A stretch of 64,000 bases of DNA from an uncultured bacterium (GTDB lineage: Bacteria; Acidobacteriota; Thermoanaerobaculia; Multivoradales; JAHZIX01): the NCBI GenBank assembly GCA_965368975.1, contig CBDUPA010000003.1:96001-160000 (forward strand), given 5' to 3'. The notes beneath the pieces were generated by a model. The model was not told the DNA's origin. It did not search any database and worked only from the letters and a program-made list of their open reading frames with translations. Both the position numbers and the translations under genes were made by a program. This document shows, in pieces, positions 17,615-57,499 of this stretch (position 1 is the stretch's first letter; each line of letters starts with the position of its first letter).

Positions 17615-17905
17615 ATGAGCCGACCGAAGAAGCTGAGCGATGCCGAGATCCAGCAGCGCCTGGGCGCCAGACCCGCCTGGAAACTAGACGGCGACAAGTT
17701 GTACCGAGAGTTCCAGTTCGACGACTTCGTCGCCGCCTTCGGCTTCATGGCGCGCGTGGCGCTGGTCGCAGAACGTAGGAACCATCACCCGGAGTGGTTC
17801 AACGTCTACAACCGGGTGCAGGTGCACCTGGCGACGCACGATGCCGGCGGCATCACCGAGCTGGACTTCCAACTGGCCGAAGACATGGATCGGCTGGCTG
17901 GCTAG
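17615..17905 (+). CDS. phhB: Pterin-4-alpha-carbinolamine dehydratase
   Basis: [25 protein letters not shown]...[21 protein letters not shown]. Confidence 0.95.
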
Positions 17906-18864: not shown

Positions 18865-18979
18865 GGCTCGATCTCCCTGGTGCAATGCAAGTCGACGCGA
18901 GAGTAGCGTCGCAGATCATCGTCGGAGCAGGCTCTGCAGCCCTTCCGGCTTTGACTTTATCGGCATCGGACTGCCGGGT

Positions 18980-19837: not shown

Positions 19838-20065
19838 GGGGCGAGATCCTCTACGGCGGCGGGTTTCGACTGAGCTTACGTTACAGACTGTCCCACGGAT
19901 GTACCGTGGCTGCTCGGATTCTGCGGATCCTATCGAAAAAGCCAGTAGAGTAGTCCACATCTCGGCTGTGCCAGTCCGGTTGCGATTGTCCGCGGGCGTG
20001 CAGTCCGGTGGCGGAAACTCTGTGAAGACCTCGCCGTACCAGCTTCTCGGAGGGATGAAGACATC

Positions 20066-24652: not shown

Positions 24653-24669
24653 TCCAGCTAGAGGCAGGG

Positions 24670-26571: not shown

Positions 26572-27401
26572 AGAAGGACGAAGAAGAAGGCAGAAATCAG
26601 CAGATTGCGCGCCAAGGTGTTGGAAAACCGTGGAGTCTGTGCGCTGTCGAATTCGAGTATTGGCTCTTCGGGCGGTCGAGCCAGCAGCTGGTGGACCTCG
26701 CGCACGGGGATGGCGAAATTCAGGTTCTGCGATAGGTAATACTGGCTGACTACCACGCCGACCACCGCACCGCGGCGGTCGAGCACGGGGGAACCGCTGG
26801 AGCCGGGGGAGATGCCCGCGGTGATCTGCAGCAGCACGGCATCCGGTACCGCGGAGGCCAGGCTGGTGTCGTCGAAGCCTTCTGCGAGCTCGGTCAGTGG
26901 CCGTTGCGCGGCGACGATCCCGGTAGAGACGCTACCGCCGAGTCCCAGGGGGCTTCCGATGACGAGGATCGGTTCGCCTTGCTCGGCGAGCGACGGAGCG
27001 GCCAACGCCAGGCCGGGGGGGCGGCTCGGCCCTGAGGCTGGAGCCGATTCCTGGTCCTCTTGCTGGCGCAGTTCGAGCACGGCCAAGTCGTATTCGCGGT
27101 CCGCAGCCACAATACGCTCGATGGCAGCCTCGCTGCCGTCGGCCAGCACCGCGCGGAGGTTGCGCACCCCGGAGACGACATGCCAGTTGGTGATGACGCG
27201 CCCGTCTTGCAGAAAGAAGCCGGTACCGGTGCTCTCACCGCCAAGGTCCGTCTGACCACGCAGCAATACGACAGAATCTCGGTGCTCGCGCACCAGCTGC
27301 TTGAGCAAGTCGGGGTCGAAAGTCTGAGCCCCGGCGGTGGCGCTCACAGTCAACAGCAGGCAGCCGGCGAGCCAGCGCAACGCTCTCATGGTCCAGAGCA
27401 T
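26544..27401 (-). CDS. Trypsin-like (S1C) serine protease with signal peptide and C-terminal TM anchor
   Basis: GTGFF, TNWHVV, DLAVL and ISPGSSGSP. Hydrophobic C-terminus. Overlaps the rhomboid start. Confidence 0.88.
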   Translation of the reverse strand: MLWTMRALRWLAGCLLLTVSATAGAQTFDPDLLKQLVREHRDSVVLLRGQTDLGGESTGTGFFLQDGRVITNWHVVSGVRNLRAVLADGSEAAIERIVAADREYDLAVLELRQQEDQESAPASGPSRPPGLALAAPSLAEQGEPILVIGSPLGLGGSVSTGIVAAQRPLTELAEGFDDTSLASAVPDAVLLQITAGISPGSSGSPVLDRRGAVVGVVVSQYYLSQNLNFAIPVREVHQLLARPPEEPILEFDSAQTPRFSNTLARNLLISAFFFVLLWLTYRRLR

Positions 27402-27522
27402 CTCACGATTCACGGCACTTTGGCAGATGATCCAGAATTGTTCTAAGGTAGACGGTTGTCCCCCTCCTCTTGGGTTGGCGAGAAGCAGTAATGCCGGTGT
27501 CGTAACCGGTCAATGAGATGAA

Positions 27523-30500
27523 ATGCAAAGGGTCCTGGTAGACGTACGGTTGATGGGCGCCCGGCAGCCGGCGGCCATTGCGGTGGCGGCGGGACGGCGT
27601 GTCCTCAGCTATGGCGAGTTGATCCGGCGTGCCGCGCTCCTGGCCGCCTACCTACGCCAGCGCGGAGCCGGCGCGGAGAAGCTGGTGGCTGTGCGCATGG
27701 AGCGGGGCTGTGATCTGGCGGTGGCGCTGCTCGCGGTCGACCAGGCCGGCGCTTGCTGGCTGCCGCTACCACCCGAGATTCCACTGCCTCGCGCACGGCA
27801 GCTGGCTCGGCGAGCGCGCGCCGGGTTGGTGCTCGTCGCGGAGGCCAGCGCGGCTCGTGGCCTGGAGTTGCCGGTGGTTTGCCTGCGCTGCCACGCGCAC
27901 GGGATCGCGGCTTCCTCGCCGGCCGAGCCGGTCGAGGTGCACCCGCAGGCCGCCGCCTATGTGCTGGCCACCTCGGGTACTGGCGGTCGTGCCAAGCTGG
28001 TCGAAGTCAGTCACGGCGCGCGCTCCTTCCACGCCCGCCGGGTCGCCGAAGCGTTTCGCCTGCGTCCTGACGATCGGGTCGCGCAGCTGGCATCCCCGGC
28101 CTTCGACGTATCCCTGGAAGAGATGCTACCGACGTGGGTCAGCGGTGGCTGCGTCGTGGCTTGGAGCGGAGCAGCTGCGATCACGGCACGCGCGCTGGAT
28201 CGCTGGACACGGGCGCGGCAGGTGACGGTCTGCAACCCGGCAGCTTCGCTGTGGCACGCGTGGGTGCACCTGGGCCGCGACGTGCCGGCGCTCGCCGCAT
28301 CGCTGCGGCTGGTGGTGACGGGTAGTGAGGCGGTCGAGACGGCGGCGCTGTCGATCTGGCGCCAGCAGCAGGTGTCGCCCGAACATCCTCGCTGGCTCAA
28401 TGCTTTTGGCACGACCGAGACGGCCGTCACCAGCCTTCTCTTCGAAGCACCTCCGCGACTGCCGCCAGCGGCCGTGACGGATCTTCACGTGCCGATCGGA
28501 TCGCCGCTCGACGGGGTCGAGGTCAGGATCTGCGACCGCCGGGGCGAGCAGGTCGAGCCCGGCGGCGAAGGCGAGCTATGGCTGAGCGGACCAGGGCTGG
28601 CACGCGGCTACCGCGGAGATCCGGCGCGCACCGCCGACGCGTTCCGCCCCCACCCGAAGGGCGATGGCGAACGTTTCTATCGGACCGGGGATCGCGTGTG
28701 CCGCCGGATCGACGGCGGACCCCTGCAGTGGCTCGGCCGCTTCGACGCGCAGGTCAAGATCCGTGGGGTCCGCGTCCAGCCCGGCGAGGTGGCTGCTTGC
28801 CTGGCCGAGCACCCAGGTGTGGCCGAAGCTTTCGTCGTACCGGCGGGGCAGGGTGGGCTGGGAACCGAGCCACGGTTGGTTGCCTACGTCGTGCCGCGGC
28901 GGATAGAGGTCCGGGTGGAGCGTCGCGTCGCACAGCACCTGGAGCGTCAACGACAGGTCTATGAAGCCCTGCACGAGGCGGCCACACCGCAGCACGACGA
29001 CGACTTCGCGGGCTGGAACAGTAGCTTCACCGGCGAGGCGATCGCGCCCGAGTCCATGCGGGCCTGGCAGGCGCTGGCGCTAGCACGAATCCGCCGGCTG
29101 CATCCGCGCCGGCTGCTCGACGTGGGCTGCGGTGAGGGGCTCCTGTTGCGACCGTTGTTGGCCGACGGCATCGAGGCCGTCGGCGTCGACGCTTCGGCAG
29201 CGGCGCTGGGGCGCCTTCGACGCCGGCTGGAGCAGGATCGGAGGCCCGTCTTGGTCGAGGCCGCCGCGCACGACCTGGGAGATCTCGACGGCCAGCGCCC
29301 CTTCGACACCATCGTGCTCAACTCCGTGGTTCAACACTTCCCGAGTGTCGAGTACCTGTTGCGCGTGCTCGACGCTACGGTGGAGCGGCTGGCAGCCGGC
29401 GGCTGCCTGTTCGTCGGGGATGTGCGGAGCTTGCCTCTGCAACCACTGTTGGCCGTCGCGATCGAACTGCAGCGCTCCGGTGCCTCGACATCACTGGCGG
29501 AGCTTCGGCGGCGCGTCGACGACCGCTGCCGCGGCGAGCGCGAGCTGCTGGTCGACCCACGCTGGTTCCCGCAGCTGCGCCGACGCTGGCCACGCCTGAC
29601 TTGGTGGCGCATCGAACCGAAGGTTGCGCGACCGGAAGATCGGACCTTCGCTGCCGGAGCGGCATTGGATCGAGAGCTGGCCGATTTCCGTTATGACGTC
29701 ACTCTCGGTTTCGACACCCCTCCACCGGTGCACCTCGCCGTGCCGCAAGCCGCCGCGAGTGCAGCGCGCGGCGGTGAAGCTCCTGCTGGAATCGAGGCGC
29801 GATTGCGGCAGGAACCCGGTGATTGGGTGGTGCTGCAGGCCTTGATCCATCGACGCCTGGAGCCTGAAGTCGCGGCGTTGCGCTGGCTTCGCCTGTCCGG
29901 CGCAGACCCGGGTGCGGAGATCGAGGTTCCAGCGACCGTTGGTGACCTGCGCGCACGTCTGGCGGCGCTGCCGCGGGTCGGTGTCGACCCCGACGACGTC
30001 GCCGAGCTGGCCGCGCGGCTGGGTTGGCAACATGCCTTCAGCTGGCAGTGCGGCGGCCAGGAGGGAGCCTTCGATGCGGTCTTCTGGCGTGCAGGCCACT
30101 CGGTGCCCGTCGAATCTCGGAAGGACCGGGCTGACGGGTATGGCGACGGGCCCGACCGGCTCGAGCCAGATCCTTGGCTCGACGGGCAGGTCTTGACCAA
30201 CGATCCGCGACTCCCGGAGCTGGCGGAGAGTCTGCCGCCGCTTCTACAGGCGCACGCCGCGGCGCACTTGCCAGCAGCCTTGCGGCCCGCGGCCTACGTC
30301 GTCCTGGCGGCGCTACCACGCACCGTCTCGGGCAAGCCGGATCGGGCCGCCCTGCCCGCGGCCCGATCCGAGCGGCCCGGCTGGTTGGGTCCCTGGCAAG
30401 CACCACGGCCGGGACTGGAGACCGAACTGGCACGGCGCTGGAGTGACCTGTTGGCGATTGAGCCGATCGGGCGCCTGGACGGTTTCTTTGAACTCGGTGG

Positions 30501-33500
30501 TCATTCGCTGAGCGCGGCTCGACTGCTCGAACGGGTCCAGCTGGACTTCGGTGTCGAACTCTCGCTGGCGGCACTCTTCGCCGCGCCGCGTTTGTGTGAC
30601 GTCGCGGCACGTCTCAGCGAGGCAGAGCAAGCCGCGGGCAGTCCTTCGAAAGGTTCCTCGGAAACGAGTCGCAGTCGCAGTCGCCGGCAGGGTCTGTCGT
30701 GGCCGCAGCGGGAGCTGTGGCTGGCCTGGCGACGTGCCCCGGACAGCACTGCCTTCTCGGTCCCGTCATCCTGCCGGGTCGAGGCGGCGCTGGCGTCCGT
30801 CCTGGTAGCCTGGCAGCGGTTGCAGCTGGAGCATCCAGTCCTCCGCTGCCGCGTCGAGAGAGGCGCTGGCAGTGGTGCCGGCAGTGGTGCCGGAAGTGGT
30901 GAGCCGAGGCTGGTGGCCGGGCCCTTCTTGCCGCTTCGTGTGCTCGATCTACAGGGGCTGCCCGTGGCTCGGCGCGCCGAAGAATGTCGGCGCCTGGCCC
31001 GCCATCTCGTGGCACTGCCGTTCGATCTGGAAGCCGGGCCGTGTGGCCGAGCCGTCCTGGTTGGAGAAGGCCGAAGCGCGACCTTGTTGACGGTCTTCCA
31101 TCACCTGATCTTCGACGGCCGTTCCGCCGACGTTCTACCCGACATGCTCTCCAACCTGATGGCACGGCAAAGCGCCGGGCCGGGTGCGGTCGGTTTCGAC
31201 CAGGACGAGCCCGTGGAACTCTCCGAGGCGGTTCAGGACTACTGGCGACCTCGGTTGCGGCCTGTGGCTGCGGCCTTGACTCCGGATCGACCGGGTTCGG
31301 ACACGGATTCGACGGCGTCCGTGGCCTGGGGGCTACGCTTGCCGGCGGCGGTGACCGCCGAGCTGCGAGAGCAAGGGCGGCAGGCGGGAGACCCGCCGCT
31401 TGGTACCTGGTTGAGCTGGCTCCTGGTGACGCTGCGGCGCTGGGCAGGTCGGGAGGTTGCAGCCACCATCGCCGTCGACGGCCGTCCGAGGGTTCCTCCG
31501 ACGGCTTCCTCGACTTTGGGGATGTTCGTGCGTACGCTGCTGGTCCGTCCATGGTTCGCAGCAGCGTCAGCCCTGGCGGATGAGGCCTTGGTCGACGTCC
31601 GGGCCGAAGTCGGCGCCGAGTTGCGCCGCGTCTTCGACGGACTCGACATTCCCCTGGAGCACCTTCGGCACGCGTTCGGCGGTGGCGAGGAAAGCGGGGC
31701 TCTGTCCGCCGTCAGCGTGGTGCTGCACGATGCCGGGGGGCGACCAGGCGCGGACGGGGAATCACCGCCGGCAGGCAGTCACCGTGCGTCCGCGGGGATT
31801 CGCGCCGTGCCCTGGCCCGGGCCGTGGCCAGCGACGGCACCGCCCGGACCGTCGATCCCCTGGTGGACGGTACGCGCGGACCTGGAGATTCACCTGTGGC
31901 CGCTGCCTGCCGCGGCTGGAGCTGGGACCTCGGAAGGACTCGGAGGGCTGGTGCTCGGTCGTCGCGCGCTGTATGACTGGACGACCATCCAGCGCCTGAC
32001 GCGGTCGCTGGAGTCTACTGCGGTGCAACTGGCGGGGGGGCACCTGCGCGGGGCTTCCAGCGGTGCGCGGCTACGCGACCTCGAGGTGCTGGCACCCGCT
32101 GCTCGCCATCAGCTGCTGCACGAGTGGCGCAGACCCCCGGGCTCATCGGCTTCGACGCCCGAACTCTTGGGCGCTGCCTTCCTGGCCCAGGCAGCGCGCC
32201 GGCCCGAGGCGGTGGCGGTGCAGTGGCATCGTGGCTGCCTGAGCTATCGAGAACTGGCACGCCGGGCAGATGCCTTCGCGGCTCGGTTGCGGCGTGACGG
32301 TGCCGCCTCGGTCGCGGGTCGCGAGCGGGAGGCGCCGGTGGCGGTCTGCCTGGACCGTGGCCCGGCCCAGCTCGTCGCGCTCCTCGGTGTCGTGCTGGCG
32401 GGTGTGCCCTACTTGCCGCTGTCGGTCGATGGGCCGCGGCGGCGGCTGGAAGCTGTTCTGCGGCAGACGGGGTGCCGCCACGTCTGTGGCACGCCCGAGA
32501 TCTTCGACGACATTGTCAGAGGATTGGACCTTTCCAGACGACGGGATGATCGAGCGGGGCAAGCCTCGCTGTGGCACTACGATGCCGCGACCGTGCAGCA
32601 GGTCGAGGCGTCCTGGTCCAGCGCGCCGAAGCCGCCACGGGCCCAGCCGCTGCAAGCGGTATACATCCTCCATACCTCGGGCTCCACCGGTACGCCCCGG
32701 GGTGTGGTGGTGTCGCAGCTGGCCTTGGCGGGACAGCTGGCGTGGTTGCGCCGTCGACTTGACTTCGGCCCCAGCGACGCGCTGCTGCACAAGACCGCCG
32801 TTACCTTCGACGCCGCCGGTTGGGAGTTGTGGTTGCCGCTGATCAGTGGTGGCCGGTTATTGCTCGCACCCGGCGGCGACGAGTTTGACCCCGGGCGTCT
32901 GTGGCGACGACTGCAGACATGGCGCGCGACGGTGCTCCAGCTGGTCCCTTCGCAGCTGGGCGCACTGCTGGCGAGGCCGCTTCCTGCCGGGCTCTCGATC
33001 GCGGGCGGCGGTTCGCTGCGCTGGCTGGCGTGCGGCGGAGAAGTGCTGCCGCCGACGTTGGCACGAGCCTGGTACGAGCGTTGCCCAAGAACGCGGCTGC
33101 TCAACCTCTACGGTCCGACCGAGGCGACGATCAATGCCAGCTCCGAGCTCGTAGCGGCGGTGGATCTGCGGCGAGAGGCTTCCGGGCGAGAGGCCGCCGC
33201 GCGAGTGGCACTTGGGCGGTCGTGCGATGGTGTCGAGACGCTGGTGGTGCAGGCGGATGGCGACCTGGCCGTGCCAGGGCAAGCTGGTGAGCTTGCGCTC
33301 GCGGGCGCCGGACTGGCGCGTGGCTATCAGGGCTGTCCGGCGGCGACGGCGGAGGCCTTCCGTCCGCATCCGTGGTCCCGGCGCCCGGGGGGCAGGCTGT
33401 ACTTCACCGGTGACCGCGTGCGCTTCCTGTCTGACGGCCGACTGGACTTCTTGGGACGCCTGGACGATCAGCTCAAGCTGCGGGGTGTGCGCATCGAGCC

Positions 33501-45500: not shown

Positions 45501-48500
45501 GCTGGTCGCGGAGGCCAGCCGCCAGCAACTGCTGCGCGAGTGGCAAGGACGGGTGGTGTCGCACGATATGGACGTCAGCCTGCCAGCCTGGATCGCCGCG
45601 CAGGCCCGACGGACGCCGGAGGCGCTCGCGGTGCTCGACGACCGTAGCGGTCACCACCTGAGCTATCGAACGCTGGTGCAACGTGCCGGGGACCTGGGGC
45701 AGCGGCTGCAGCGGGCCTTGGAGCGCCGGAACTGTCCGCAAGGGCCGGTCGCTGTAGAGCTGGAGCGCGGACCCGAGTTGCTGACTTCGCTGCTGGCCGT
45801 GCTGTGGGCCGGCGCGGCGTATCTGGCAATCGACCCGGCGCTGCCACGCGAGCGCCGGTCCGAATTGCGGGCGGTCGGGAGTCTGTGGCTGCACCGGCCG
45901 CGGCGAGGAGAGGTGCGGCCGGAAGGCGTACCGGTGCCTGTGCATCCTGAGGCAGCCGCCTATGTCGTGCACACCTCGGGGTCGAGTGGCCGACCGAAGG
46001 GAGTCGTGATACCGCATGCGGCGCTGCTCAATCACCTGCGCTGGATGCAGCGTTGCCTGCCGCTGCGCCCGGCGGATCGGCTGCTGCAGAAGACGCCGCT
46101 GTCCTTCGACGCTGCGATGTGGGAGCTGTGGACTCCGCTGGTTGCCGGTGGCGTGTTGGTGCTCGCTCATCCCGACGTCCAGCGGCGACCCCGAGCGTTG
46201 CTGGCGACCATCGCGCGGCGCGGTATCAGCGTGTTGCAACTGGTGCCCTCGCACTTGCGCTGGCTCTGGCGCACAGGTGCCGGCTGGCGCGCCCTGCGCC
46301 GCTTGCGCCGCTTGCTGTGCGGTGGCGAACGACTGGACCTCGACTTGCTGCGCGCGGTTCGCAGGCGTCTGCCGGACGTCGAGCTGATCAACCTCTACGG
46401 TCCCGCGGAGGTGACGATCGATGCGACCTTCGCGCACCTGTCCGCGGCTCCTGCGCCGCCGCGCGGCGTACCTCCGATCGGGCGTCCGCTCGACGGCATC
46501 CGGGCCCTGGTGCTGGACCGCCACCAATGCTGGCTGCCGGTAGGGGTTGCCGGCGAGCTCGGCCTGGGTGGCGTTGGGTTGGCGCGCGGCTACTTGCAGC
46601 AGGCGGCGGCGACGGCAGCCGTCTTCGTCCCCGATGCCCTTGGTTCGCCCGGCAGCCGTCTCTACCGCAGCGGAGACTTGGCGCGCTGGCGCGCGGATGG
46701 TCAACTCGAGATCCTCGGCCGGATCGACCGCCAGCTGTCGATCCGGGGCCGGCGCCTGGAGCCTGCCGAGATCGAGTCCTTGCTGCGCCGCCATGCAGGG
46801 GTGGCGGAAGCGGTCGTCGTGGCGAGCCGCCGCCCGGAGCCTCGTAAGGGGCCTCGCTGGCAGTCGGGGTCGCCACGCCTGCTGGCGTACGTGGTGCCCG
46901 CTTCGGTCGAATCCTTGGTCGCTTCCGGTGGGGCCGCGCAGCAGCACTCCAGCTGGCGGGTCGAGGAGTGGCGGCAGGTCTACGAGGAAGTCTACCGACA
47001 GCCGGCAGCCGCCGCGCCAGAGGAAGATTTCAGCGGCTGGACGCGTAGCAGCGATGGCCAGCCGATCCCCGAGGCGGAGATGCGTGAGTGGTTGGAGCAC
47101 ACGGTGGAGCGTGTGCGCGCGCTGGGTGGCCGTCGCATCCTGGAGATCGGTTGCGGTTCGGGGTTGCTGCTCTGGCGGCTGGCGAGCGGCTGCCGAAGCT
47201 ACCTGGGTACCGATTTCTCGGCCACCGTCATCGCCCGCTTGCAGGCACAGCTGGCCGAGCGCGATCGACGCTGGCAAGGCGTGAGCGTAGAGCGCCGGCT
47301 GGCGGACGACTTCGAGGGGCTGGAGTTCGATTCTTTCGACGTGGTGGTGGTCAATTCGGTGGCTCAGTACTTCCCAGACCTCGGCTATCTGCAGCGTGTG
47401 CTGGAGGGGGCGCTGGCGTGCCTGGCACCTGGTGGCAGCCTGTTCGTCGGCGACGTGCGCAGCCTGCCGTTGCTCGAGGCCTTCCATCTCGAGGTGGCGG
47501 CCGTGGACGCAACAGGAGAGCGGCTGCTGCGGCGTGCGCGCCAGCGGCGGCAAGAAGACCCAGAACTGGTGCTGCATCCGGACTTCTTCCGCCGCCTGGC
47601 GCAGCGCCATGGTCTCGGCTTGCAGCTGCTGGCCAAAGCTGGCCGGGCGTGCAACGAGCTGACGCGCTACCGGTACGATGCCGTGCTGCGTCGCCGTCCG
47701 GTGACGTCACCGGTTCGGGTGGCTGCCTGGGACGAGGTGACGGGGCAGCACCGGCCGGCCGGCCGCCCTGCCGCGCTCGCTGCCTGGCTGCGCGATACGC
47801 CGGCCGACACGGTCGCCGTTACCAGCGTGCCAGACCGCAGGCTCGCCGAACCCCTGCAGCGGCTACTGCGCTGGACGGGAATCTCGCCCTGGTCCGGTTC
47901 GGGCGTGGCCGAAGTGGTGCGTCGGGGTGCAGAGGAGCCGGCTGAGGTCGAGGGTTTCGATGTCGAGGACTTGCGCCAGGGTTTCCTCGCCGCTGGCTAT
48001 CACGCACAGCCGCATCTCTCCGCACGCGGTCCCGGCTGGGTCGATCTGGTGGCGCGGCGGGCCGGGGTCGTGGCGGAGCCCGTCGCGCTGCCAGCCGGTG
48101 CAGCAGCGGCGCTCGCCGACCGCCAGCTGAGCAACCGCCCTTGGGGGGGCGGGACGCTGGGTGAGCTGGAGACCAGCCTGCGCCAGTATCTGCAGCGCTG
48201 GTTACCGGCGGCCTTGGTGCCGGCCCACTTTGTGCGGCTGAACGCGTTGCCGCGTCTGGCTGGCGGCAAGCTCGATCGTTCTGCCCTGCCGCAAGAGCAG
48301 CCTCAATCCCAGCCTCATCAGGAGCCCCTACCGTCGCCGGCCTTGTTGCCCGGAGAGTCGCGGCAAGCATACCGACCCAAGGGCTCGTTGGAGCGCATGG
48401 TGGCCGATGTTTGGCAGCGCGTGCTGGGTGTCCGTGGTGTGGGGCGCGACGATCATTTCTTCCAGCTCGGCGGTCACTCTTTGCTTGCTACGCGGGTAGC

Positions 48501-51500
48501 GACGCGCTTGAGTCGCCGCCTGGGAGTCGACGTGCCTCTTCGCTGTCTTTTTGAGGCGCCGGTGCTCTGGCGCCTGGCGCAGCACCTCTCTTCCTTGCGG
48601 GCAGCCTCGAGGGCGAAAGCCTCCGCAGTCCTGACGCCCGACCGGAGGTCGACCCCCGGCAGGCTGCCGCGCCTGTCCGCGGCGCGGCGCTGCCGGCCGC
48701 TGCCGCTGTCCTTCGCCCAGCGCCGGCTGTGGTTCGTGCACCGGCTGCGACCGGCGGATCCGGCCTACAACGTCTTCGCCGCGTTGCGTCTAGAGGGGAC
48801 TCTCGATGCGGCAGCTCTGCACCGAGCCTTCGGCCACCTACAGGCCCGTCACGAGATCCTGCGCACCCGCTTCGTGGAGATCGACGGCCGGCCGCGCCAG
48901 ATCGTCGAACCGGCAGCTGCGGAGGGGGTGGGGAGCAGGATCCGGTTCGTCTACCTCGACCTGCAGCGGTTGGTCTCAGCAAAAAACACCGTGCAAGCAA
49001 GGACCGTGCTGGACCTGCTGCGTACGGCCAGCGGTGTACCCTTCGCGCTGGACCTTGCTGGAGCGTGGCGTGCCGGTCTGCTGCGTTTGGCGCCGGACCA
49101 GCACGTCTTGTGGTTGGTACTACATCACATCGTTTCGGACGGCTGGTCGCAGAGTGTGCTGTACCGTGAGCTGGAGACCTTCTATCGCCGTGAAGTGGGG
49201 GCCGACGCGGCCGCGCTGCCCGCCTTGCCGGTGCAGGTTGTCGACTTCGCCCAATGGCAGCGTAAGCGTCTGCGTGGTCTGGCGCTGCGCCGCCAGCTAG
49301 CGTGGTGGCGACGCTGTCTGCGTGGGCTTGAACCGCTGGCGTTGCCGTACGATCGCTCGCTGCCCTCCGTCGAGACGCAGCCACCTGGGGCCGTGGTTCG
49401 ACGTGTCCTCGACGGCGATCTGTGGCGGCGAGTCGAGGCGGCGGGACGGCGGGCAGAAGCGACACCGTTCATGGTTCTCCTGTCCGCCTATTTCCTGTTG
49501 CTGCAGGGGTTGACCCCGCGGCTCGACGCTGCACGCCGCGATGTCACGGTGGGCACGCCGGTTGCCGGCCGGCACCACCCGCGGCTCGAAGGTTTGATCG
49601 GCTGTTTCGTCAACACTCTTGTGCTGCGTGCACCGGGGGGGCCGCGCGAGGCTCAGGAAAGCTGCCAGGCCGTTGTCGCCTCCGGGGACAGCACCGTCGA
49701 GGGTTGGCTGCGAGCGGTGCGCGTGCTGGTGATCGACGCGTTCGCGCGGCAAGAAGTGCCGTTCGAGCGCCTGGTCGAAGTGTTACGGCCGCGACGCGAG
49801 CTGCAGCGCAGTCCACTCTTCCAGGCCGCGCTGGCCTTGCACAACACGCCGGCAGTCGACTTCCATCTGCCGGGTATTCGAGTGGCGGCGCAAGAGGTGC
49901 CGCTCGACAAGGCCCGCTTCGAGGCCGAATTGCACGCCTGGCCCCTCGCTGACGGGGGTGCGACGCAAACTTCTGGAGGAGCTACCGGCGCAGGCGGCTG
50001 CGAGCTCCGCTTGCGCTATCGGCGTGATCTCTTCGACGCATCGACGGTGGCTCGCTGGCTCGCGACCTTGGAAGGGATCCTGGCGTGGATGACGCGCGCG
50101 GGGACAGCGCCACTGGCCAGCCTGCCGTGGGGGACCCGAGGTGAGCGGCATCAGCTGCTGGTCGAATGGCCGCGAGCTGGAGGACAGCTGCCGACAGGGC
50201 ACTCTGTGCCGGAGCTTCGAGCCTTGTTCGGGCGCTCCGCGATCGAGCGACCGGCGTCAGTGGCGGTGGTGCAGGGACGTCGACGGCTGAGCTACGGCGA
50301 CCTGCAACGACGGGTCGATCTACTGGCCGAGCGGCTCCGGGCACGCGGTGTGGGTGTCGAGTCGGTGGTGGCTCTCGGGTTGGAGCGATCACTCGAGCTG
50401 GTGATCGGGCTGCTGGCGGTGTTAACGGCGGGAGCGGCCTACGTACCGCTGTCGGCTGCCGATCCGCCGCGCCGCCGCCAGCGGCAGCTGCAGCAGGCCG
50501 GAGCTCGTTGGTTGCTGGTCCGCAGCAGGTCCGAGCCTTTCGTGAGTGCCGACGAGAGCGAAGGGCTCGACGTGCTGACCGTAGGCCAATCCCCGCGGGT
50601 CTTGTCGTTGCAGGAACCGGGACCACGGGATTCGATACGGTCCGTGACCCGTGAGACCGTCTCCGGCGAGTCGGCTGCCTACGTGCTCTTCACCTCTGGC
50701 TCCACCGGTGGGCCCAAGGGAGTGGTCATCCCGCGGCGTGCGCTGGCTGGCTACCTCCAGTGGGCGGCGGGCGCGTACGGCCTCGGAGCGGGACGCGGAG
50801 CCTTGGTGCACAGCGAGCTGCGCTTCGACTTCACGGTCACGCCACTGCTGGCACCGCTGGTCGCGGGCGCCACGACGGTGTTGCTGCCGCCTGCCGTTCC
50901 GGGCCGGGAAGCCGTGGGTCTGGCGGCGGCGTTGCGCCGAGGCGGACCGGTGCACGAAGGGCTGGACCTGCTCAAGCTCACACCGAGCCACCTGCGGTGG
51001 CTGCGCGCTAGCGACATCTCGTTGCCGCCGTCTCGATCGTTGCGCACGCAGCATCCACGCGTGACGGTGCTGGGCGGGGAAGTGGTGTCAGCGGCGCACG
51101 TCGAGGCCGCCGCGGGCTTGCTCGGGCACTACGGGTGGCGATGCTGGAACGAGTACGGCCCCACCGAGGCGACGGTCGGCTGTGCCGTGGCCGAGCTCGC
51201 CCTGTTGCCAGCGGCTGCAGGCTTGTCGATCAACCCAGGGCCGGTCGGTGAGCACGCGGCCGATTCGCTCCTCGGCGTCCAGACGGTGGGCCGGCCCGTC
51301 CCGGGCGCGCGCGTGCTGCTGCTCGATCACGGCGGCGAGCCGGTGCCGCTGGGCGTGGTCGGCGAGCTGGTGATCGAGGGGACAGGGCTGGCACGGGGCT
51401 ACGCCGGGCGACCGGCTGAGACTGCGGACCGCTTCCGGCCGTCGCCCAGCGGACGTGGTGCGCGCCGATACCATAGCGGCGACCTGGCGCGCTGGCAGGC

Positions 51501-52857
51501 AGAGGGTAGGCTGACCGTGCTGGGACGCCGCGACGCACAGCTGAAGGTACGCGGCCACCGACTGGAGCCGGCGGAGATCGAGGCGGAGCTGGTTCGTCTG
51601 CCGGAGGTGCACGCCGTCGCGGTCCTGGGGTATCGGGGGCGAGGGGGGCCGTCTCTGGAGCACCGAACTGTGGGGACCGAAACCGTCCGCTCGCAGGCCG
51701 CTGGTGAGGTCGAGCTAGTGGCCTTCGTCGTCCCTGCCGTCAACGGTCATTCGACAGATGCCGACCCTCCGAAGTTGCACCAGGTTCTACACCGGGCACT
51801 GAGGCGGCACTTGCCGGCGCCGTTGCTACCGTTGCGCTACGAGCTGCTGCCGGAGCTGCCGGTGACCACCGGGGGCAAGCTCGACCGCGGAGCCTTGCTC
51901 GAGCGCCTGCGATCGGAGCGAACGCCGCCGGCGTCTCTCGTTTCTGGTGGAGACGCGGTCGATGCTGCGGGCGACCGGTTGCTCCACACCATCGTTGCGC
52001 AGTTTCGCGCGCTCCTCGAGCGTCCGGTCTTGGCGAGCGACGACTTCTTTGACCTCGGAGGTCATTCCTTGCTGGCGGTGCGCCTGGCGGCACAGTTACG
52101 GCACCGGCTGGGTCGCGAGGTACCGCTGGAATGGTTCTTTCGCGAGGCTACACCCTTGGCCTTGGCACAGCGTCTGCGGCAGCGAGCGGTTGCTGCTGTG
52201 CCGTTCAGTGATCTGGGATCCGAAGCTGGAAGCAGTGACGGAGACCTCGTTTGCCTACGCCCTGGCGCGGCGGAAGAGCCCTGGTTCTGGTTACCGCCGC
52301 GCGACAACAACGTCCTTTGCTACCGTGACTTGGAGGCGGCGCTCGATACCGGTCCGGCGGTCTTCGGTCTCCAGGGGGGGCGCGACTACGCTCTGCAAGA
52401 CTCTGGGGTTTCGCAGCAGCGGCGAGTCTCCGCGTGCGTCCAGCTTCTACGGCGGTGCCAGCCGGTGGGGCCCTACCATCTCGCGGGGTGGTCTGAGGGA
52501 GGCGTTCTCGCCTTCGCGGTAGCCCGGCAGCTGGTGGAGGAAGGGGAGCGCGTCTCCTCACTGGTCCTGATCGACGCGCGGGCACCGAACTACCCGGCAC
52601 CCGATGTTCTTGCCACCCGCGGACCTTTCTCCCGGCTCGGTCGATTGATCCTACTGCGGCCGGAGCAGCGGGGCAGCGAAGCGGACGAGACCCTCGGCTG
52701 GCATCGATGGGCGTCCGAGGTGCAGGTGATCACTGTGCCTGGTGATCACTTCTCTATGGTGCGATCACCTCACGCCCGGGAGGTGGCTGCACGACTGAGC
52801 CAGTACCGGCAACAGGGCTCAGCCGATCACGATAGATCTTCGCAAGGCGCCGATTGA
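27523..52857 (+). CDS. Giant non-ribosomal peptide synthetase: A(MT)-T / C-A-T / C-T / C-A-T-E / C-A-T / C-A(MT)-T / C-A-T-TE
   Basis: Seven T motifs (GGHSL ~30500, GLDSL ~33965, GAHSL ~35715, GGDSI ~39075, GGDSL ~43918, GGHSL ~48470, GGHSL ~52060). Six C-domain HHxxxDG motifs, an E-domain HHLAIDALS at ~39655, six A domains, two embedded N-MTs (DVGCGEG, EIGCGSG), and a TE with GWSEG/D/GDH. Confidence 0.93.
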   Translation: MQRVLVDVRLMGARQPAAIAVAAGRRVLSYGELIRRAALLAAYLRQRGAGAEKLVAVRMERGCDLAVALLAVDQAGACWLPLPPEIPLPRARQLARRARAGLVLVAEASAARGLELPVVCLRCHAHGIAASSPAEPVEVHPQAAAYVLATSGTGGRAKLVEVSHGARSFHARRVAEAFRLRPDDRVAQLASPAFDVSLEEMLPTWVSGGCVVAWSGAAAITARALDRWTRARQVTVCNPAASLWHAWVHLGRDVPALAASLRLVVTGSEAVETAALSIWRQQQVSPEHPRWLNAFGTTETAVTSLLFEAPPRLPPAAVTDLHVPIGSPLDGVEVRICDRRGEQVEPGGEGELWLSGPGLARGYRGDPARTADAFRPHPKGDGERFYRTGDRVCRRIDGGPLQWLGRFDAQVKIRGVRVQPGEVAACLAEHPGVAEAFVVPAGQGGLGTEPRLVAYVVPRRIEVRVERRVAQHLERQRQVYEALHEAATPQHDDDFAGWNSSFTGEAIAPESMRAWQALALARIRRLHPRRLLDVGCGEGLLLRPLLADGIEAVGVDASAAALGRLRRRLEQDRRPVLVEAAAHDLGDLDGQRPFDTIVLNSVVQHFPSVEYLLRVLDATVERLAAGGCLFVGDVRSLPLQPLLAVAIELQRSGASTSLAELRRRVDDRCRGERELLVDPRWFPQLRRRWPRLTWWRIEPKVARPEDRTFAAGAALDRELADFRYDVTLGFDTPPPVHLAVPQAAASAARGGEAPAGIEARLRQEPGDWVVLQALIHRRLEPEVAALRWLRLSGADPGAEIEVPATVGDLRARLAALPRVGVDPDDVAELAARLGWQHAFSWQCGGQEGAFDAVFWRAGHSVPVESRKDRADGYGDGPDRLEPDPWLDGQVLTNDPRLPELAESLPPLLQAHAAAHLPAALRPAAYVVLAALPRTVSGKPDRAALPAARSERPGWLGPWQAPRPGLETELARRWSDLLAIEPIGRLDGFFELGGHSLSAARLLERVQLDFGVELSLAALFAAPRLCDVAARLSEAEQAAGSPSKGSSETSRSRSRRQGLSWPQRELWLAWRRAPDSTAFSVPSSCRVEAALASVLVAWQRLQLEHPVLRCRVERGAGSGAGSGAGSGEPRLVAGPFLPLRVLDLQGLPVARRAEECRRLARHLVALPFDLEAGPCGRAVLVGEGRSATLLTVFHHLIFDGRSADVLPDMLSNLMARQSAGPGAVGFDQDEPVELSEAVQDYWRPRLRPVAAALTPDRPGSDTDSTASVAWGLRLPAAVTAELREQGRQAGDPPLGTWLSWLLVTLRRWAGREVAATIAVDGRPRVPPTASSTLGMFVRTLLVRPWFAAASALADEALVDVRAEVGAELRRVFDGLDIPLEHLRHAFGGGEESGALSAVSVVLHDAGGRPGADGESPPAGSHRASAGIRAVPWPGPWPATAPPGPSIPWWTVRADLEIHLWPLPAAAGAGTSEGLGGLVLGRRALYDWTTIQRLTRSLESTAVQLAGGHLRGASSGARLRDLEVLAPAARHQLLHEWRRPPGSSASTPELLGAAFLAQAARRPEAVAVQWHRGCLSYRELARRADAFAARLRRDGAASVAGREREAPVAVCLDRGPAQLVALLGVVLAGVPYLPLSVDGPRRRLEAVLRQTGCRHVCGTPEIFDDIVRGLDLSRRRDDRAGQASLWHYDAATVQQVEASWSSAPKPPRAQPLQAVYILHTSGSTGTPRGVVVSQLALAGQLAWLRRRLDFGPSDALLHKTAVTFDAAGWELWLPLISGGRLLLAPGGDEFDPGRLWRRLQTWRATVLQLVPSQLGALLARPLPAGLSIAGGGSLRWLACGGEVLPPTLARAWYERCPRTRLLNLYGPTEATINASSELVAAVDLRREASGREAAARVALGRSCDGVETLVVQADGDLAVPGQAGELALAGAGLARGYQGCPAATAEAFRPHPWSRRPGGRLYFTGDRVRFLSDGRLDFLGRLDDQLKLRGVRIEPGEIEAVLLRHPRLQAAVVGVVGEGDRRSLTAWVVGHSDAASEESAAAIDEDLSAKGLRRFVARTLPVSSVPSQVHVLPHLPLTLHGKVDRRRLQAQASASMPRPGVKNRLGVLERDREPRHTPLEADLVRWVTSMVPGLQAGDVGVDTDLLQLGLDSLRGLELLAQFEQRSGLHLRLRDLFETPTIAGLAARAEVSRLSGLKTAAEAIGQSRSAPAQTRATFAQERLWVEEKRRAPGRGISGYHLALAWDLAAPPARLRALRCQLPEALCALARRHPLLRVDLVEEMGELRLRMQDTGGLERYCPETLRHLDLTGLAPTVRSLHLRRLHAAALGRPLLPELARSCWLQLAPDHAQLILVWHHLIVDGASLGWLAQDLSSALCRHGEESQTGDEAQAAALDSALPYLRFARDQRQWAEGVEAQRASVYWRRRLRGYRPWTLLPLSSELAKVELPSAARTARIELPAALVAELQQRGATAGATLNMVLLAALFALLARHGRRDLLIGVPVNERRTPEVQRCTGLFVNLLPLRLRWQEEDDWPSLLERVRRALLRDLERAALPFEQIVDVAGWTRAGWSRTGVGVLPALLGLGDQTPALPLGGIGTAPLDLPVPVAVQDLEFQLRRTATGGIEGVLVRPAVVAHEAVEAMAAEYRQLLEHLAATPEARVPLALTSLADRRLEVAFSLPSAAAPTEASPTISWTPPRSPEEAVLAEVWADLLDGQRQRGHGPGVHEDLFALGAHSLLLLRAAHRLRGLWKRDVSLAWLFEHPTIAQQAAALAAPGALARPPSGQDLRGTEAGRKRRDGPVKLVAPVSFAQRRLIRTERWSPGSVAYNLAVAWQVEGSLQLRALERAGQSLVRRHESLRTRFGRSDHALRQVVLAASPVTLRRIDVRGLPVAVARELGVELLRRAALQPFDPLHRAQMLRLLVVLQPEDTSARAHQQVLLASHHLAVDGWSLGLLARDVGRFYREQLSSPSMPSRVPAPALQPADAAIAERRWLRGSRRRRWLRAGLAQLENLEPIELPADRPAARLVHRLEGRGGVEAAEAEAGGSVAVHLEATLSASVRELAATAGATPFMVLLSAAAAVLARRRDAVRGGRDVVFGAPEAGRSGGYLETGMLDDVVGNFVNPLVLRVSMAQPGAVTLQGLVQQVRDVCLRAFELRALPFDLLQRAWRRRQQASRTSLFQASFALHDLPPAVPDFGQATVTEIELPCLPVHFDLAWHWWWQGETLAGQLAFRRSLFDTTSVQHLGQQLRSLLQAATSDPRRPLAAVPLCTASQRQQLLREWPRAAAPAVPRFGPDAFAAFEAQARRTPDAVAITRDGVHHGGAWLSFGALYRRALGLGQLIGSKELGTEGVVALEVSAGLEQVIALLATLAVGAAYLPLDPRQPRARRDELCRDAGVGAQAGARAVVTRTDILAATSSGGRSAARLVGRDARAAYVLYTAGSGGRPKGVLVEHRQLLAYVQAFSERLAGGAPRFSCALVQPWTVDSTVSTIFPPLLLGGRLCLPARGATLEPRRLASFLARQSVDLLKIAPSHLAALAETVGVTALLPQRWLVVGGETFPVTLARELVSAAPPSLQIFNHYGPTETTVGSLMHRLPDAVGHNAWPHGVPIGRALPGERAYVVDQRGDPVPVNDVGELWLGGGGVARGYLGKPAATALAFVPDPWRQGARCYRTGDLVRCLTSGELCFVGRRDLQLKVRGFRVEPAEIEAALLRLPAVREAVVGSTEGVAGARLVAFVAVRRDQQVSATDVLDALRELLPAHMVPAHCQILEQLPRTPHGKLDRSALLSRVLPELVESQQGTPGALDGRGASVDDRTAAGSGSTIQNLLARIWADVLGVTTVDPHDDFFRLGGDSITALRVLARAHRQGLELSVRQLFERPTVASLAEVVRPLDGRSDAAEPLRRASGPVPLTPLQQALLRAAHVDVRAVDQAMVVTLSRMVAVGRVETALAALVAHHDALRLRFRRLRGRWWQAMSPASRVTVAMSPRVEVVDLERLTAVDVLAEERRLQAARGRRRYDLRHGPLLHAVYVRRGAWAPCLLLAVHHLAIDALSWPPLLDDLETLLSGHAPPPAPSFALWARRRAAWCRSTEARGQLGHWQRAGRPPAMDAQVCRQLRAGRSSCRTTGCLSFESQLDGATTRALVQGLSVATGAGPLAALVVAWARALDVREAWLELESHGRQGIGPRAERLVGWCAAAYPFRFRLPQADPVGGRRPKAVDADRRALEAARVQLRAVPDAGAGYTGARGVSQRRWRGPFVRINYLGDAALAAPTAGADGVFLARRSAVASDRGWAGPPLRLDAGVEDGCLCLRWSLRPGTLDTTAVRALTETFQRQLRRLARLAGVGDDVADAYPLTAPQQGILAGCLARPESSAYFVQQWWSLDAAVARAPRQAVLRAAWLRVIARHPALRTSFRVDAEPEQRVHRDVQVPWREIDLRRLGGEARRAAWQHVLERDRRRGFDPGQPPLLRFALVHGRAAARLLWSRHHLVLDGWSVPILLAEVRALMAAAGHLGVSMEPWRLEQLPAQEWDAAAGLRLAPRFRQHVLEQLRRGTDINFWRRWLRGVRRSTPVPLDVPVTPGDPHPADSHTRSQRLGSQRQRQQSLRMTPAWSERLDAFSRQRRLTFATLVQAAWALLLARCSATADVVFGVTLAGRSAQTPAAESVVGLCLNALPLRLRVPATRATGPWLVYVQQRATRLAAEASASPAEILRRAVPRGSLASLFETLVVVENYPLSTDVPSPQVASDVRYVPSFAHGGGFSQTEHALVLVAIPPAAENCGIELAVRYDPRRLDAAAARSLLHQTARLLRQFARRRPSVPLHQLGSPAVPAALLGSLEEAHDLADWAGPPAVWLAEQVRRTPERLAVRDGRQALSFRQLWQITGVLSRDLQRAGAGPGRLVVVSGARRGSLVPALLAVARSGAAWWVLDPEFPSAARCEQLRLLLAAQTAPRPVAWLCLPDQAEASPVLEPEVRTWLERLAGPFEVPWPKSREAVAPREEPAEKMGPTPTAGPDDAAYLVFTSGTGGMPRAVVAPQRAAAHFLRWVRHQWPGERPGEGERSALLAGLGHDPLLRDVWAPLVRGGTVHVPPAGSWRDGQRLGRWLAREAIQQVHVTPGLARLLVEAPASIRWPHLRRVIFAGGAVEPALVEALRQRSCQHLSRDRGERCAGFTWISTYGTSETPQIAAWSLAAADRAAVLGLVGISGFQLLVVRLGGRRLEIAAVGEVGEIHVRSRYLATGYIEASSGTGQPGAGQAGFRRFPGSSDPLDRLFATGDLGRFLPAEAAASSPAAVQVLGRRDRQLKVRGVRVAPEDVEARLRACQHSCATSVADAAVVPVVGSVRQVQMAAAVTVRGAAVLSPGAVRQLEMELYQQLQRVLPAALVPSPIRVLPRLPLTASGKTDLRRVRCLLAEARRRVDSLPSGPAKADVARGARTSLEALVAEVWEDVLQHPGLAFDQDFFALGGDSLLAVRVASRLRQLLERPVPVRWLFEAPTVARLTDRLVQPPPHATGGARPEPARALRRQRGDQGPLSFAQRRLWLVDRLNPGDAGYHLPVAWQIAGRLQIAALVAAARFLVCRHAGLRTHFPRRDGRPRQVVVPVEKVAAGRLRVPCIDLRRLGPAALEHGRELLHRSALRPFDLARGPLLRWRLLRLGEADHLLQWEQHHIVSDGWSKSIFQRELSAAYASFAAGQGPPVLPVLPLRYLDFAVWQRRRLRGASKARLTAGWRRLLDGFRPVELPLDRSLERPPGPGVTGGGLAERRLPAALWHRVQAAARAAGVTPFMWLSASFLSLLGRLSGRRDPAVAVPTARRDRPELEGILGFFVNLVVLRTDLRVPSFSDLVRQLRDTTLAAFDLEELPFDLLVRALLPEEHGAERGAYRYRQADTRRHRDPTLPLVPAVFALQSPAAAPVWPGVELRPFDLDLCPPRARLEVFAWPLRPETNGDAGLQLLWLYRRQCLDTTTVERWLDSWQILIDAALTSPEMRVEALPLVAEASRQQLLREWQGRVVSHDMDVSLPAWIAAQARRTPEALAVLDDRSGHHLSYRTLVQRAGDLGQRLQRALERRNCPQGPVAVELERGPELLTSLLAVLWAGAAYLAIDPALPRERRSELRAVGSLWLHRPRRGEVRPEGVPVPVHPEAAAYVVHTSGSSGRPKGVVIPHAALLNHLRWMQRCLPLRPADRLLQKTPLSFDAAMWELWTPLVAGGVLVLAHPDVQRRPRALLATIARRGISVLQLVPSHLRWLWRTGAGWRALRRLRRLLCGGERLDLDLLRAVRRRLPDVELINLYGPAEVTIDATFAHLSAAPAPPRGVPPIGRPLDGIRALVLDRHQCWLPVGVAGELGLGGVGLARGYLQQAAATAAVFVPDALGSPGSRLYRSGDLARWRADGQLEILGRIDRQLSIRGRRLEPAEIESLLRRHAGVAEAVVVASRRPEPRKGPRWQSGSPRLLAYVVPASVESLVASGGAAQQHSSWRVEEWRQVYEEVYRQPAAAAPEEDFSGWTRSSDGQPIPEAEMREWLEHTVERVRALGGRRILEIGCGSGLLLWRLASGCRSYLGTDFSATVIARLQAQLAERDRRWQGVSVERRLADDFEGLEFDSFDVVVVNSVAQYFPDLGYLQRVLEGALACLAPGGSLFVGDVRSLPLLEAFHLEVAAVDATGERLLRRARQRRQEDPELVLHPDFFRRLAQRHGLGLQLLAKAGRACNELTRYRYDAVLRRRPVTSPVRVAAWDEVTGQHRPAGRPAALAAWLRDTPADTVAVTSVPDRRLAEPLQRLLRWTGISPWSGSGVAEVVRRGAEEPAEVEGFDVEDLRQGFLAAGYHAQPHLSARGPGWVDLVARRAGVVAEPVALPAGAAAALADRQLSNRPWGGGTLGELETSLRQYLQRWLPAALVPAHFVRLNALPRLAGGKLDRSALPQEQPQSQPHQEPLPSPALLPGESRQAYRPKGSLERMVADVWQRVLGVRGVGRDDHFFQLGGHSLLATRVATRLSRRLGVDVPLRCLFEAPVLWRLAQHLSSLRAASRAKASAVLTPDRRSTPGRLPRLSAARRCRPLPLSFAQRRLWFVHRLRPADPAYNVFAALRLEGTLDAAALHRAFGHLQARHEILRTRFVEIDGRPRQIVEPAAAEGVGSRIRFVYLDLQRLVSAKNTVQARTVLDLLRTASGVPFALDLAGAWRAGLLRLAPDQHVLWLVLHHIVSDGWSQSVLYRELETFYRREVGADAAALPALPVQVVDFAQWQRKRLRGLALRRQLAWWRRCLRGLEPLALPYDRSLPSVETQPPGAVVRRVLDGDLWRRVEAAGRRAEATPFMVLLSAYFLLLQGLTPRLDAARRDVTVGTPVAGRHHPRLEGLIGCFVNTLVLRAPGGPREAQESCQAVVASGDSTVEGWLRAVRVLVIDAFARQEVPFERLVEVLRPRRELQRSPLFQAALALHNTPAVDFHLPGIRVAAQEVPLDKARFEAELHAWPLADGGATQTSGGATGAGGCELRLRYRRDLFDASTVARWLATLEGILAWMTRAGTAPLASLPWGTRGERHQLLVEWPRAGGQLPTGHSVPELRALFGRSAIERPASVAVVQGRRRLSYGDLQRRVDLLAERLRARGVGVESVVALGLERSLELVIGLLAVLTAGAAYVPLSAADPPRRRQRQLQQAGARWLLVRSRSEPFVSADESEGLDVLTVGQSPRVLSLQEPGPRDSIRSVTRETVSGESAAYVLFTSGSTGGPKGVVIPRRALAGYLQWAAGAYGLGAGRGALVHSELRFDFTVTPLLAPLVAGATTVLLPPAVPGREAVGLAAALRRGGPVHEGLDLLKLTPSHLRWLRASDISLPPSRSLRTQHPRVTVLGGEVVSAAHVEAAAGLLGHYGWRCWNEYGPTEATVGCAVAELALLPAAAGLSINPGPVGEHAADSLLGVQTVGRPVPGARVLLLDHGGEPVPLGVVGELVIEGTGLARGYAGRPAETADRFRPSPSGRGARRYHSGDLARWQAEGRLTVLGRRDAQLKVRGHRLEPAEIEAELVRLPEVHAVAVLGYRGRGGPSLEHRTVGTETVRSQAAGEVELVAFVVPAVNGHSTDADPPKLHQVLHRALRRHLPAPLLPLRYELLPELPVTTGGKLDRGALLERLRSERTPPASLVSGGDAVDAAGDRLLHTIVAQFRALLERPVLASDDFFDLGGHSLLAVRLAAQLRHRLGREVPLEWFFREATPLALAQRLRQRAVAAVPFSDLGSEAGSSDGDLVCLRPGAAEEPWFWLPPRDNNVLCYRDLEAALDTGPAVFGLQGGRDYALQDSGVSQQRRVSACVQLLRRCQPVGPYHLAGWSEGGVLAFAVARQLVEEGERVSSLVLIDARAPNYPAPDVLATRGPFSRLGRLILLRPEQRGSEADETLGWHRWASEVQVITVPGDHFSMVRSPHAREVAARLSQYRQQGSADHDRSSQGAD

Positions 52858-57296: not shown

Positions 57297-57499
57297 TTTT
57301 CCTCGTCCTCCTTGACTGTGCGGTGTGAGTGCGCCCATGCATACAAAACGAACCGGGCATCTACCAGTCTACCTCAGAAATTCAATAGACGTTGAACGAT
57401 TTGTCTCTACGTCGAACTGTAGGCATGACCAAGCGCCGAGAGGTCTAGTCCCGGTGTCAGGAAGGTAGGGGAGGCGATGGAGGGTGGGGAAACGTGGAT

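Follow-up and report, generated by a model that had tools for sequence, protein, structure and literature searches.

The gene at positions 27523 to 52857 on the + strand of a 64,000-nucleotide stretch of DNA from an uncultured bacterium of the Acidobacteriota (contig CBDUPA010000003.1; the whole stretch is referred to here as the window) encodes a nonribosomal peptide synthetase (NRPS) that is not of the canonical collinear, lipopeptide or siderophore type. It is read here from sequence, with moderate confidence, as an active linear (type A) NRPS that would borrow its phosphopantetheinyl transferase (PPTase) and release by hydrolysis NMe-Arg-Gln-(Gln or skipped)-D-Asp-Glu/Aad-NMe-Gln-Asn (NMe, N-methyl; Aad, aminoadipate), which appears to be a new peptide product. 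The 25-kb single-gene, seven-module NRPS of the original prediction is real and its coordinates are exact: a single open frame of 8,444 codons (8,444 aa) spans the interval, the remaining five frames contain 77-140 stops apiece, and the chance of such an open reading frame (ORF) at the given base composition is approximately 1e-70. Domain order was determined using Pfam and our own hidden Markov models (HMMs) built on fetched NRPSs, and condensation (C) and epimerase (E) subtypes were assigned using context-trained HMMs, BLAST and a quick tree. With adenylation (A), carrier (T), N-methyltransferase (MT) and thioesterase (TE) domains, the order is A1(MT)-T1 / C2-A2-T2 / C3-T3 / C4-A4-T4-E / C5-A5-T5 / C6-A6(MT)-T6 / C7-A7-T7-TE, giving seven modules and carriers against six A domains, with module 3 lacking an A domain. 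C2, C3, C4, C6 and C7 are of the LCL type, C5 is of the DCL type, and the domain at residue 3907 is the epimerase.

27523..52857, + strand: NRPS gene, 8,444 aa, seven modules, six A domains
27559..30609, + strand: module 1, A1 (DVENVGAVTK, Arg-like) with inserted MT, then T1
29002-29721, + strand: MT1, N-methyltransferase within the A1 C-terminal subdomain
30415-30609, + strand: T1
30694..34074, + strand: module 2, C2-A2-T2
30694-32133, + strand: C2, LCL type, the most eroded domain, HHLIFDG retained
32182-33777, + strand: A2, code DAWQAGLINK, Gln-like
33916-34074, + strand: T2, GLDS motif, weak
34159..35826, + strand: module 3, lacking an A domain, C3-T3
34159-35532, + strand: C3, LCL type, HHLIVDG
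35614-35826, + strand: T3, GAHS motif, 28-aa linker to C3
35929..40545, + strand: module 4, C4 (LCL)-A4-T4-E
37420-38877, + strand: A4, code DSSKVGHVGK, Asp-like
38992-39183, + strand: T4, GGDS type
39241-40545, + strand: epimerase, His and Glu motifs retained
40573..44022, + strand: module 5, C5 (DCL type)-A5-T5
42085-43737, + strand: A5, code DPRHIATQIK, DPRH class, Aad/Glu-like
44110..48582, + strand: module 6, C6 (LCL)-A6 (DAWQLGLIDK, Gln-like)(MT)-T6
47020-47703, + strand: MT of module 6, N-methyltransferase
48697..52170, + strand: module 7, C7 (LCL)-A7-T7
50233-51897, + strand: A7, code DFTKVGEVGK, Asn-like
52267..52803, + strand: type I thioesterase, Ser8324-Asp8351-His8409 triad

The repeated C-A-T modules and the terminal release domain are those of a multimodular NRPS; the canonical collinear arrangement, with an A domain in every module, breaks down at module 3, which is C-T. 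The AMP-binding match in Pfam begins at residue 13, and no starter C domain, fatty acyl-AMP ligase or polyketide synthase (FAAL/PKS) for N-acylation was seen; as A1 is the first domain of the gene and no starter C precedes it, the non-acylated start that had been predicted is borne out. MT1 is inserted between motifs A8 and A9, with 5WMM as its closest structure (E 2.6e-31), and the best single-domain PDB match of A1 is ApnA A1. The GGDS carrier T4, the E domain with its His and Glu motifs and the DCL-type C5 are mutually consistent. The quick tree unites C2, C4, C6 and C7 (SH-aLRT 95), a hint of an old internal duplication, though long-branch attraction is possible. Assembly collapse as the origin of the A-less module is unlikely, as the gene holds no long near-identical repeat.

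Specificity codes were extracted by hmmalign with pocket columns anchored on GrsA motif positions, and the same columns returned known codes in controls, such as DFWNIGMVHK, which is entered as Thr in PMC3547906 (this and all other papers are cited from excerpts). The codes previously read by hand for modules 1, 2, 4, 6 and 7 (M1, M2, M4, M6 and M7; five of the six) were identical by hmmalign, whereas M5, hand-read as DPRHFGTQIK, computes as DPRHIATQIK, with two positions having been one residue off and the residue class unchanged; a gapless alignment to eight DPRHxxxQ domains confirmed this register. The M1 code is identical in 3 control domains and agrees at 9/10 positions with the Arg consensus in the excerpted PMC12283262. 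M4 lies two changes away from DLTKVGHVGK, which takes mostly Asp according to the same excerpt, and since Asp is only its main substrate an Asp analogue could be taken instead. M7 differs by one change from both DLTKVGEVGK and DATKVGEVGK, the latter a predicted Asn code in PMC3547906. The DPRH class is aminoadipate in the excerpts of PMC12283262, where DPRHLALLAK is assigned to it, and PMC3547906, with a related code placed under Asn. Among 1,408 A domains no control code fell within 3 mismatches of M5, A5 scored 175 bits on TIGR03443 with the subgroup DPRHxGxQ nearest at 35-40% identity, and an Arg is present at its pocket position 239. DAWQFGLIDK, taken here as a Gln code, differs by one to two changes from M2 and M6, and a DPRH-type domain presumably activates the Glu side-chain carboxyl in microcystin McyE. 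The idea that A-less modules go with DPR-type A domains is unsupported (3/15 A-less proteins, 33/266 overall).

Codes and domains together uphold the predicted residue classes, namely Arg-like, Gln-like, Asp-like (epimerised), Aad/Glu-like, N-methyl-Gln-like and Asn-like. The description of the peptide as all-polar stands for the six readable codes and cannot be asserted overall, module 3 having no A domain. All six codes belong to Arg, Glx, Asx or DPR classes, against a best of 5/6 among 215 other NRPSs with at least five A domains; as these classes were drawn around the NRPS's own codes, without Ser, Thr and Lys, the comparison shows that the mix is rare and not that polar peptides are rare. 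This composition, together with the weak metal binding of Asp and Glu carboxylates, is what speaks for a nitrogen reserve or a metal chelator, the roles proposed originally. The window contains neither a hydroxylase nor a hydroxamate or catechol enzyme, and no TonB receptor or reductase, so that neither the genes expected for these roles nor the set that marks a peptidic siderophore accompanies the NRPS, and recycling of a reserve would be hindered by N-methylation and epimerisation. Cyanophycin and other storage polymers come from small processive ligases rather than seven-step lines. Either role finds no sequence support and is the least probable of the explanations considered.

Module 3 has a C3-T3 junction of 28 residues, as in most natural cases; the order T-C-T-C was found in 15/266 other large NRPSs, with similarly short junctions. 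Four of the control NRPSs (P0244, P0257, P0272 and P0312), all uncharacterised, have two A-less C-T modules each. Such modules are fed by trans A or A-T proteins in WS9326A and himastatin biosynthesis (excerpts of PMC7539972 and PMC9943842), and both this precedent and the shared T-C-T-C order are consistent with a stand-alone A or A-T partner, from another part of the genome, loading module 3 in trans, in which case residue 3 could be modified or non-polar and the gene would not be self-sufficient. However, known trans partners lie within their clusters, accompanied in WS9326A-type systems by a type II TE, and no free-standing A domain, A-T protein or dedicated type II TE was found within 27 kb upstream and 11 kb downstream; an alpha/beta hydrolase (3221-3901) sits 24 kb off. 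Trans feeding is therefore considered quite improbable. In yersiniabactin biosynthesis an A-less module is loaded by the A domain of another module (PMC7539972, in part), and loading from another module's A domain has been proposed for the rhodamides (PMC11586506, in part). As the window contains no trans partner, our inference is that module 3 is more likely loaded in cis or skipped.

The C-terminal domain matches PF00975, and Ser8324, Asp8351 and His8409 fall in triad columns common to 136-138 TEs. The spacing from Asp to His in the alignment is 58 residues, compared with 90-204 (median 128.5) in 136 controls, one extra row without an aligned His having been left out. The lid helices between beta6 and beta7, approximately 70 aa, are deleted, and are absent in the alignment as well; relative to 4ZXH the gap is 19 residues against approximately 93. 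The domain is thus a Ser-Asp-His hydrolase without the helical lid of a type I TE. The first loop reads PPRDN in place of HPxGG. An AlphaFold model of A7-T7-TE (mean pLDDT 64, pTM 0.38) was used for the TE core alone, the middle of A7 being mis-aligned in the 19-row model input and uninformative; it showed an intact alpha/beta hydrolase core (core pLDDT mostly 70-91) with a 21-residue loop without helix where the lid would sit. The best Foldseek matches of the model were 5JA1, 2VSQ and 4ZXH, and Atlas thioesterase clusters matched the TE at 0.96. Short lids seemingly present in three controls (Ser-to-His 86-99 by regular expression, query 85) were not reproduced by the alignment-based measure and are attributed to mis-anchoring. 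A TE lid comprises one to four helices and is proposed to exclude solvent, position the substrate and contact the carrier (PMC10510592, in part). Loss of the lid points to hydrolysis or to impairment. No paper describing a lidless NRPS TE was found in a limited literature search, a weak negative; within that search the lidless TE is without precedent and the other parts of the line have precedents. The original prediction was silent on this domain, which proved a telling feature.

Evidence that the gene remains functional comes from what has been retained. All seven carrier serines, 7/7 HHxxxD motifs in the C and E domains, 6/6 A10 lysines, both S-adenosylmethionine (SAM) motifs, the TE triad and the His and Glu motifs of the epimerase are all there. 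For columns conserved in 95% or more of the controls, the retained fraction is 0.78-0.98 in the A domains and 0.71-1.0 in the C and E domains, whereas weakly conserved columns drift. There are zero stops or frameshifts in 8,444 codons, although 4.2 stops are expected per 100 nonsynonymous single-base changes and neutral drift of 0.1 excess changes per site would yield approximately 36 stops. The best reading of the sequence is that the NRPS is still under selection, with its domains eroded most at the front (C2, T2, C3 and T3), a front-weighted erosion that the original prediction did not mention and that makes the activity of modules 1-3 doubtful.

A wholly inactive relic in early decay would account for the general erosion, the loss of A3 and of the TE lid, the missing helper genes and the drifted composition (12% Arg and 2.4% Trp, with Trp exceeding all 120 controls). 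It is very unlikely, given that no stop or frameshift accompanies more than 100 in-frame indel events across the A and C alignments, that catalytic columns are selectively kept, and that the same Arg/Trp-rich drift is seen in a lasso cyclase-like gene nearby, so that drift looks like a trait of the accessory genes of this genome. Compensated frameshifts as the source of the odd composition were rejected, since the other frames have no NRPS similarity and third-position guanine-plus-cytosine content (GC3) is steady.

Several observations weigh against an active line that makes the proposed peptide. Against 314 held-out A domains, the scores of all six A domains lie in the bottom 0-3.2%, and among 1,466 carriers T2 falls at 0.3% and T3 at 0.9% (T7 is also near the lowest 1%); these percentiles are approximate because the controls are top matches of the NRPS, with related sequences among them and some overlap with the training sets. 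P-loops deviate in A1 (TSGTGGRAK), A4 and A5, and the P-loop Lys is replaced by Arg in A2 and A5. Well-conserved C columns are kept at 0.44 in C2, 0.56 in C3, 0.70 in C4, 0.80 in C6 and 0.86 in C7, against a control median of 0.92 (n=400), with values as low as that of C2 in 4/400 controls and as low as that of C3 in 13/400; phmmer against solved structures gave 0 matches for C2 and 35 for C3. The Gln assignment of the DAWQ codes is tentative, a literature search for isopeptide formation or side-chain activation by DPRH domains returned no supporting paper, and no orthologue above approximately 42% identity that would show conservation was detected, though full-length or fragmentary ones may be missed. 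The oxyanion-loop region of the TE is atypical, and the lid also helps carrier binding (PMC10510592, in part).

The main rival explanation builds on this gradient and holds that the line is partly dead, with C2, T2, C3 and T3 non-functional and the frame kept open since it leads into modules 4-7; the product would be a short Asp-Glu/Aad-NMe-Gln-Asn-type peptide, or output would be very low. Kept C columns rise along the gene, the longest terminal branches are those of C2 (1.93) and C3 (1.74), followed by E (1.58), C5 (1.3), C4 (1.0) and C6 and C7 (0.76), with a median of 0.54, T2 and T3 score lowest among the carriers, the A domain of module 3 is gone, and the frame would stay open even if the 3' half alone mattered. 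However, A1 and A2 (374 and 382 bits) are no more eroded than A4 and A7 (388 and 370 bits), the A1 code has its three identical control domains, the MT1 SAM motif is retained, and so are HHxxxDG in C2 and C3 and the serine in T2 and T3. A dead front is accordingly rated as somewhat unlikely.

The sequence itself shows the domain order, the catalytic motifs and the pocket codes; the substrates are predicted from these, and activity, linkage, release and role are a matter of interpretation. In the fully active, self-contained line that we prefer, a housekeeping PPTase encoded elsewhere in the genome would prime the seven carriers. A1 would load Arg, N-methylated by MT1 at the free N-terminus, and A2 would load Gln; module 3 would either be skipped or be charged by an A domain next to it, most simply by a second use of A2, which would give Gln-Gln. 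Module 4 would add Asp or a near relative of it, which the E domain would convert to the D form for uptake by the DCL-type C5; A5 would then add a dicarboxylic residue, Glu or aminoadipate. This residue is possibly linked via its side-chain carboxyl, in which case Arg239 could hold the free alpha-carboxyl. Module 6 would then add N-methyl-Gln and module 7 Asn. As a lidless TE could not shield or fold the chain, it would release a linear acid by hydrolysis. The predicted product, NMe-Arg-Gln-(Gln)-D-Asp-Glu/Aad-NMe-Gln-Asn-OH, would be short, unacylated and hydrophilic, with a mass by hand arithmetic of approximately 944 Da (Gln3, Glu5), or approximately 816 Da if module 3 is skipped. Methylation, the D-residue and a possible isopeptide would resist proteases, making a diffusible signal or antagonist the most likely role; within this reading that role is a guess, held tentatively. 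That one gene combines a fully active, self-sufficient seven-step line, an A domain loading two carriers, a DPRH isopeptide, a lidless hydrolytic off-loader and a family of new NMe-Arg-capped all-polar linear peptides is unlikely to hold in every part; if it did, the product family would escape standard reversed-phase extraction. An active line would make a peptide of a rarely isolated chemical type, and its lidless TE would be a natural test of the need for the lid and a candidate general-purpose hydrolytic release domain. The erosion gradient likewise offers a test of the amount of drift that C and T domains tolerate while a line still works; with a dead front, the gene would be an assembly line caught shortening itself with its reading frame kept.

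Relatives of the NRPS are distant. Residues 1-5000 share 28-40% identity with proteins of 4,644-14,777 aa in the best 120 of 438 matches (567 candidates scored); none of the proteins listed is longer than 7,993 aa, and full-length relatives may be missing from the database. Residues 7860-8444 share 31-42% identity with shorter proteins in the best 120 of 5,503 matches. T2-C3-T3-C4, compared with 1.84 billion representatives, gave 29-37% identity among the top 150, with 689 bits as the cut-off and scores summed over repeats, a ranking that favours many-module proteins; in simulation a full-length orthologue at 40% identity scored approximately 786 bits, and a half-length fragment below 60% identity would be missed. 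A GTDB scan with six exact 8-residue patterns returned 38 stretches and no self-hit, the 1 confirmed stretch being a generic 30% Terriglobia match, and the best tblastn match of A5 among plasmids was 33%.

The surroundings of the gene were annotated by a Pfam scan of 30 + 23 other ORFs in the window and a six-frame motif search for MbtH and PPTase. Of these 53 ORFs, none was recognised as an MbtH, PPTase, free-standing A domain or peptide exporter; three MbtH patterns gave 0 matches in six frames of the window, and no credible PPTase motif was present in the window, the sole match lying on the strand opposite phhA. The only transporter in the window is an MlaE/F/D-type set approximately 20 kb upstream. 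The predicted lack of an adjoining MbtH, PPTase or exporter gene is thus correct; the label of orphan, which fits the missing MbtH and PPTase, is in itself unremarkable because these act across clusters, and MbtH-like proteins are described as working across clusters and as needed by some A domains only (PMC10510592, in part).

Annotation of the window ORFs agrees with the predicted neighbourhood of proteases and TPR signalling proteins. Upstream are a rhomboid, a kinase-TPR and, 109 bp off, a divergent trypsin/HtrA-like protease that has its catalytic His and Ser motifs; downstream are a convergent cyclase-TPR, a subtilase, a second kinase-TPR, meaB and rimO. The cyclase-TPR gene (52754-55861, - strand) scored 261 bits on TIGR04510, under the cut-off of 400, and overlaps the 3' end of the NRPS gene by 104 nt (52754-52857), in which the last TE helix is double-coded. 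Protease and signalling genes at 425-1474, 22418-27413 and 56028-60532 comprise two trypsin-like proteases, of which one carries a ZZ zinc finger, the rhomboid, the subtilase and two Ser/Thr kinase-TPR proteins. RimO of the window shares at most 77% identity with its 120 best listed relatives, of which the taxon-named ones are Acidobacteriota or Thermoanaerobaculia; the host is Thermoanaerobaculia-like. Horizontal origin of the NRPS, considered from its GC content (70% vs 63-66%), is unsupported: the excess lies at codon positions 1-2, and four-fold GC (77.6%) is like that of the flanking accessory genes, which suggests that the NRPS is a long resident of this genome. No tRNA, Rfam match or flanking repeat was found as a sign of a mobile element, and no sigma-70 promoter or terminator was found in 27250-27650.

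The lasso-peptide-like locus (14321-17571, + strand) comprises the drifted cyclase-like asparagine synthase (14321-16228; NF033535 301 bits, under the cut-off of 525), a precursor of 61 aa (16337-16522), which has a leader with the motif YxxPxL, Thr at -2 and a core that starts with Gly and has Asp at 7-9, and an HprK-like kinase (16543-17571), with no B1/B2 peptidase gene seen beside it. At 17588-18885 a pterin-4a-carbinolamine dehydratase (+) faces a phenylalanine 4-monooxygenase (-) with a 4-nt overlap, probably belonging to primary metabolism. A 1,351-aa surface protein (10059-14114, + strand) has SdrD B-like repeats, a Golvesin C-terminal domain and, within its gene, a 15-nt tandem repeat (13651-13719). 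Long ORFs on opposite strands overlap at 18980-21517 (-; weak Phenol_MetA_deg) and 20066-22333 (+; CBM9/DUF5916).

Among known systems, EntF, SrfA-C and AB3403 (5JA1, 2VSQ and 4ZXH) have the A-T-TE fold and order and the aligned triad in common with the NRPS, whose TE lacks approximately 70 lid residues and whose domains are all far more drifted. Interrupted A domains of the 5WMM type, which we take to be thiocoraline TioS, share the placement of the MT between A8 and A9; here one MT lies in the initiation module and is predicted to methylate a free N-terminus. WS9326A Cal19, himastatin HmtL, yersiniabactin HMWP1/2 and rhodamide Rmd share a C-T didomain inside the line, and unlike the Cal19 and HmtL-type systems the NRPS has no adjoining trans A-T protein or type II TE. 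DPRH-class domains (zeamine Zmn16 A1, predicted aminoadipate, and Lys2-like reductases) share D-P-R-H at the first four pocket positions. The anti-cyanobacterial argimicins are reportedly short and resemble the predicted product in having methylated Arg and NMe-Gln, but are said to be pentapeptides containing Ile/Val. Acidobacteriota are described as rich in biosynthetic clusters and chemically almost unexplored, so that orphan NRPSs are expected (PMC13083261, in part). Arg, NMe-Gln and cysteic acid or Asp likewise occur in the discodermin, microspinosamide and polydiscamide sponge peptides (PMC13608206, in part), but, unlike the product predicted here, peptides of the discodermin group are N-formylated, much longer, hydrophobic and cyclic.

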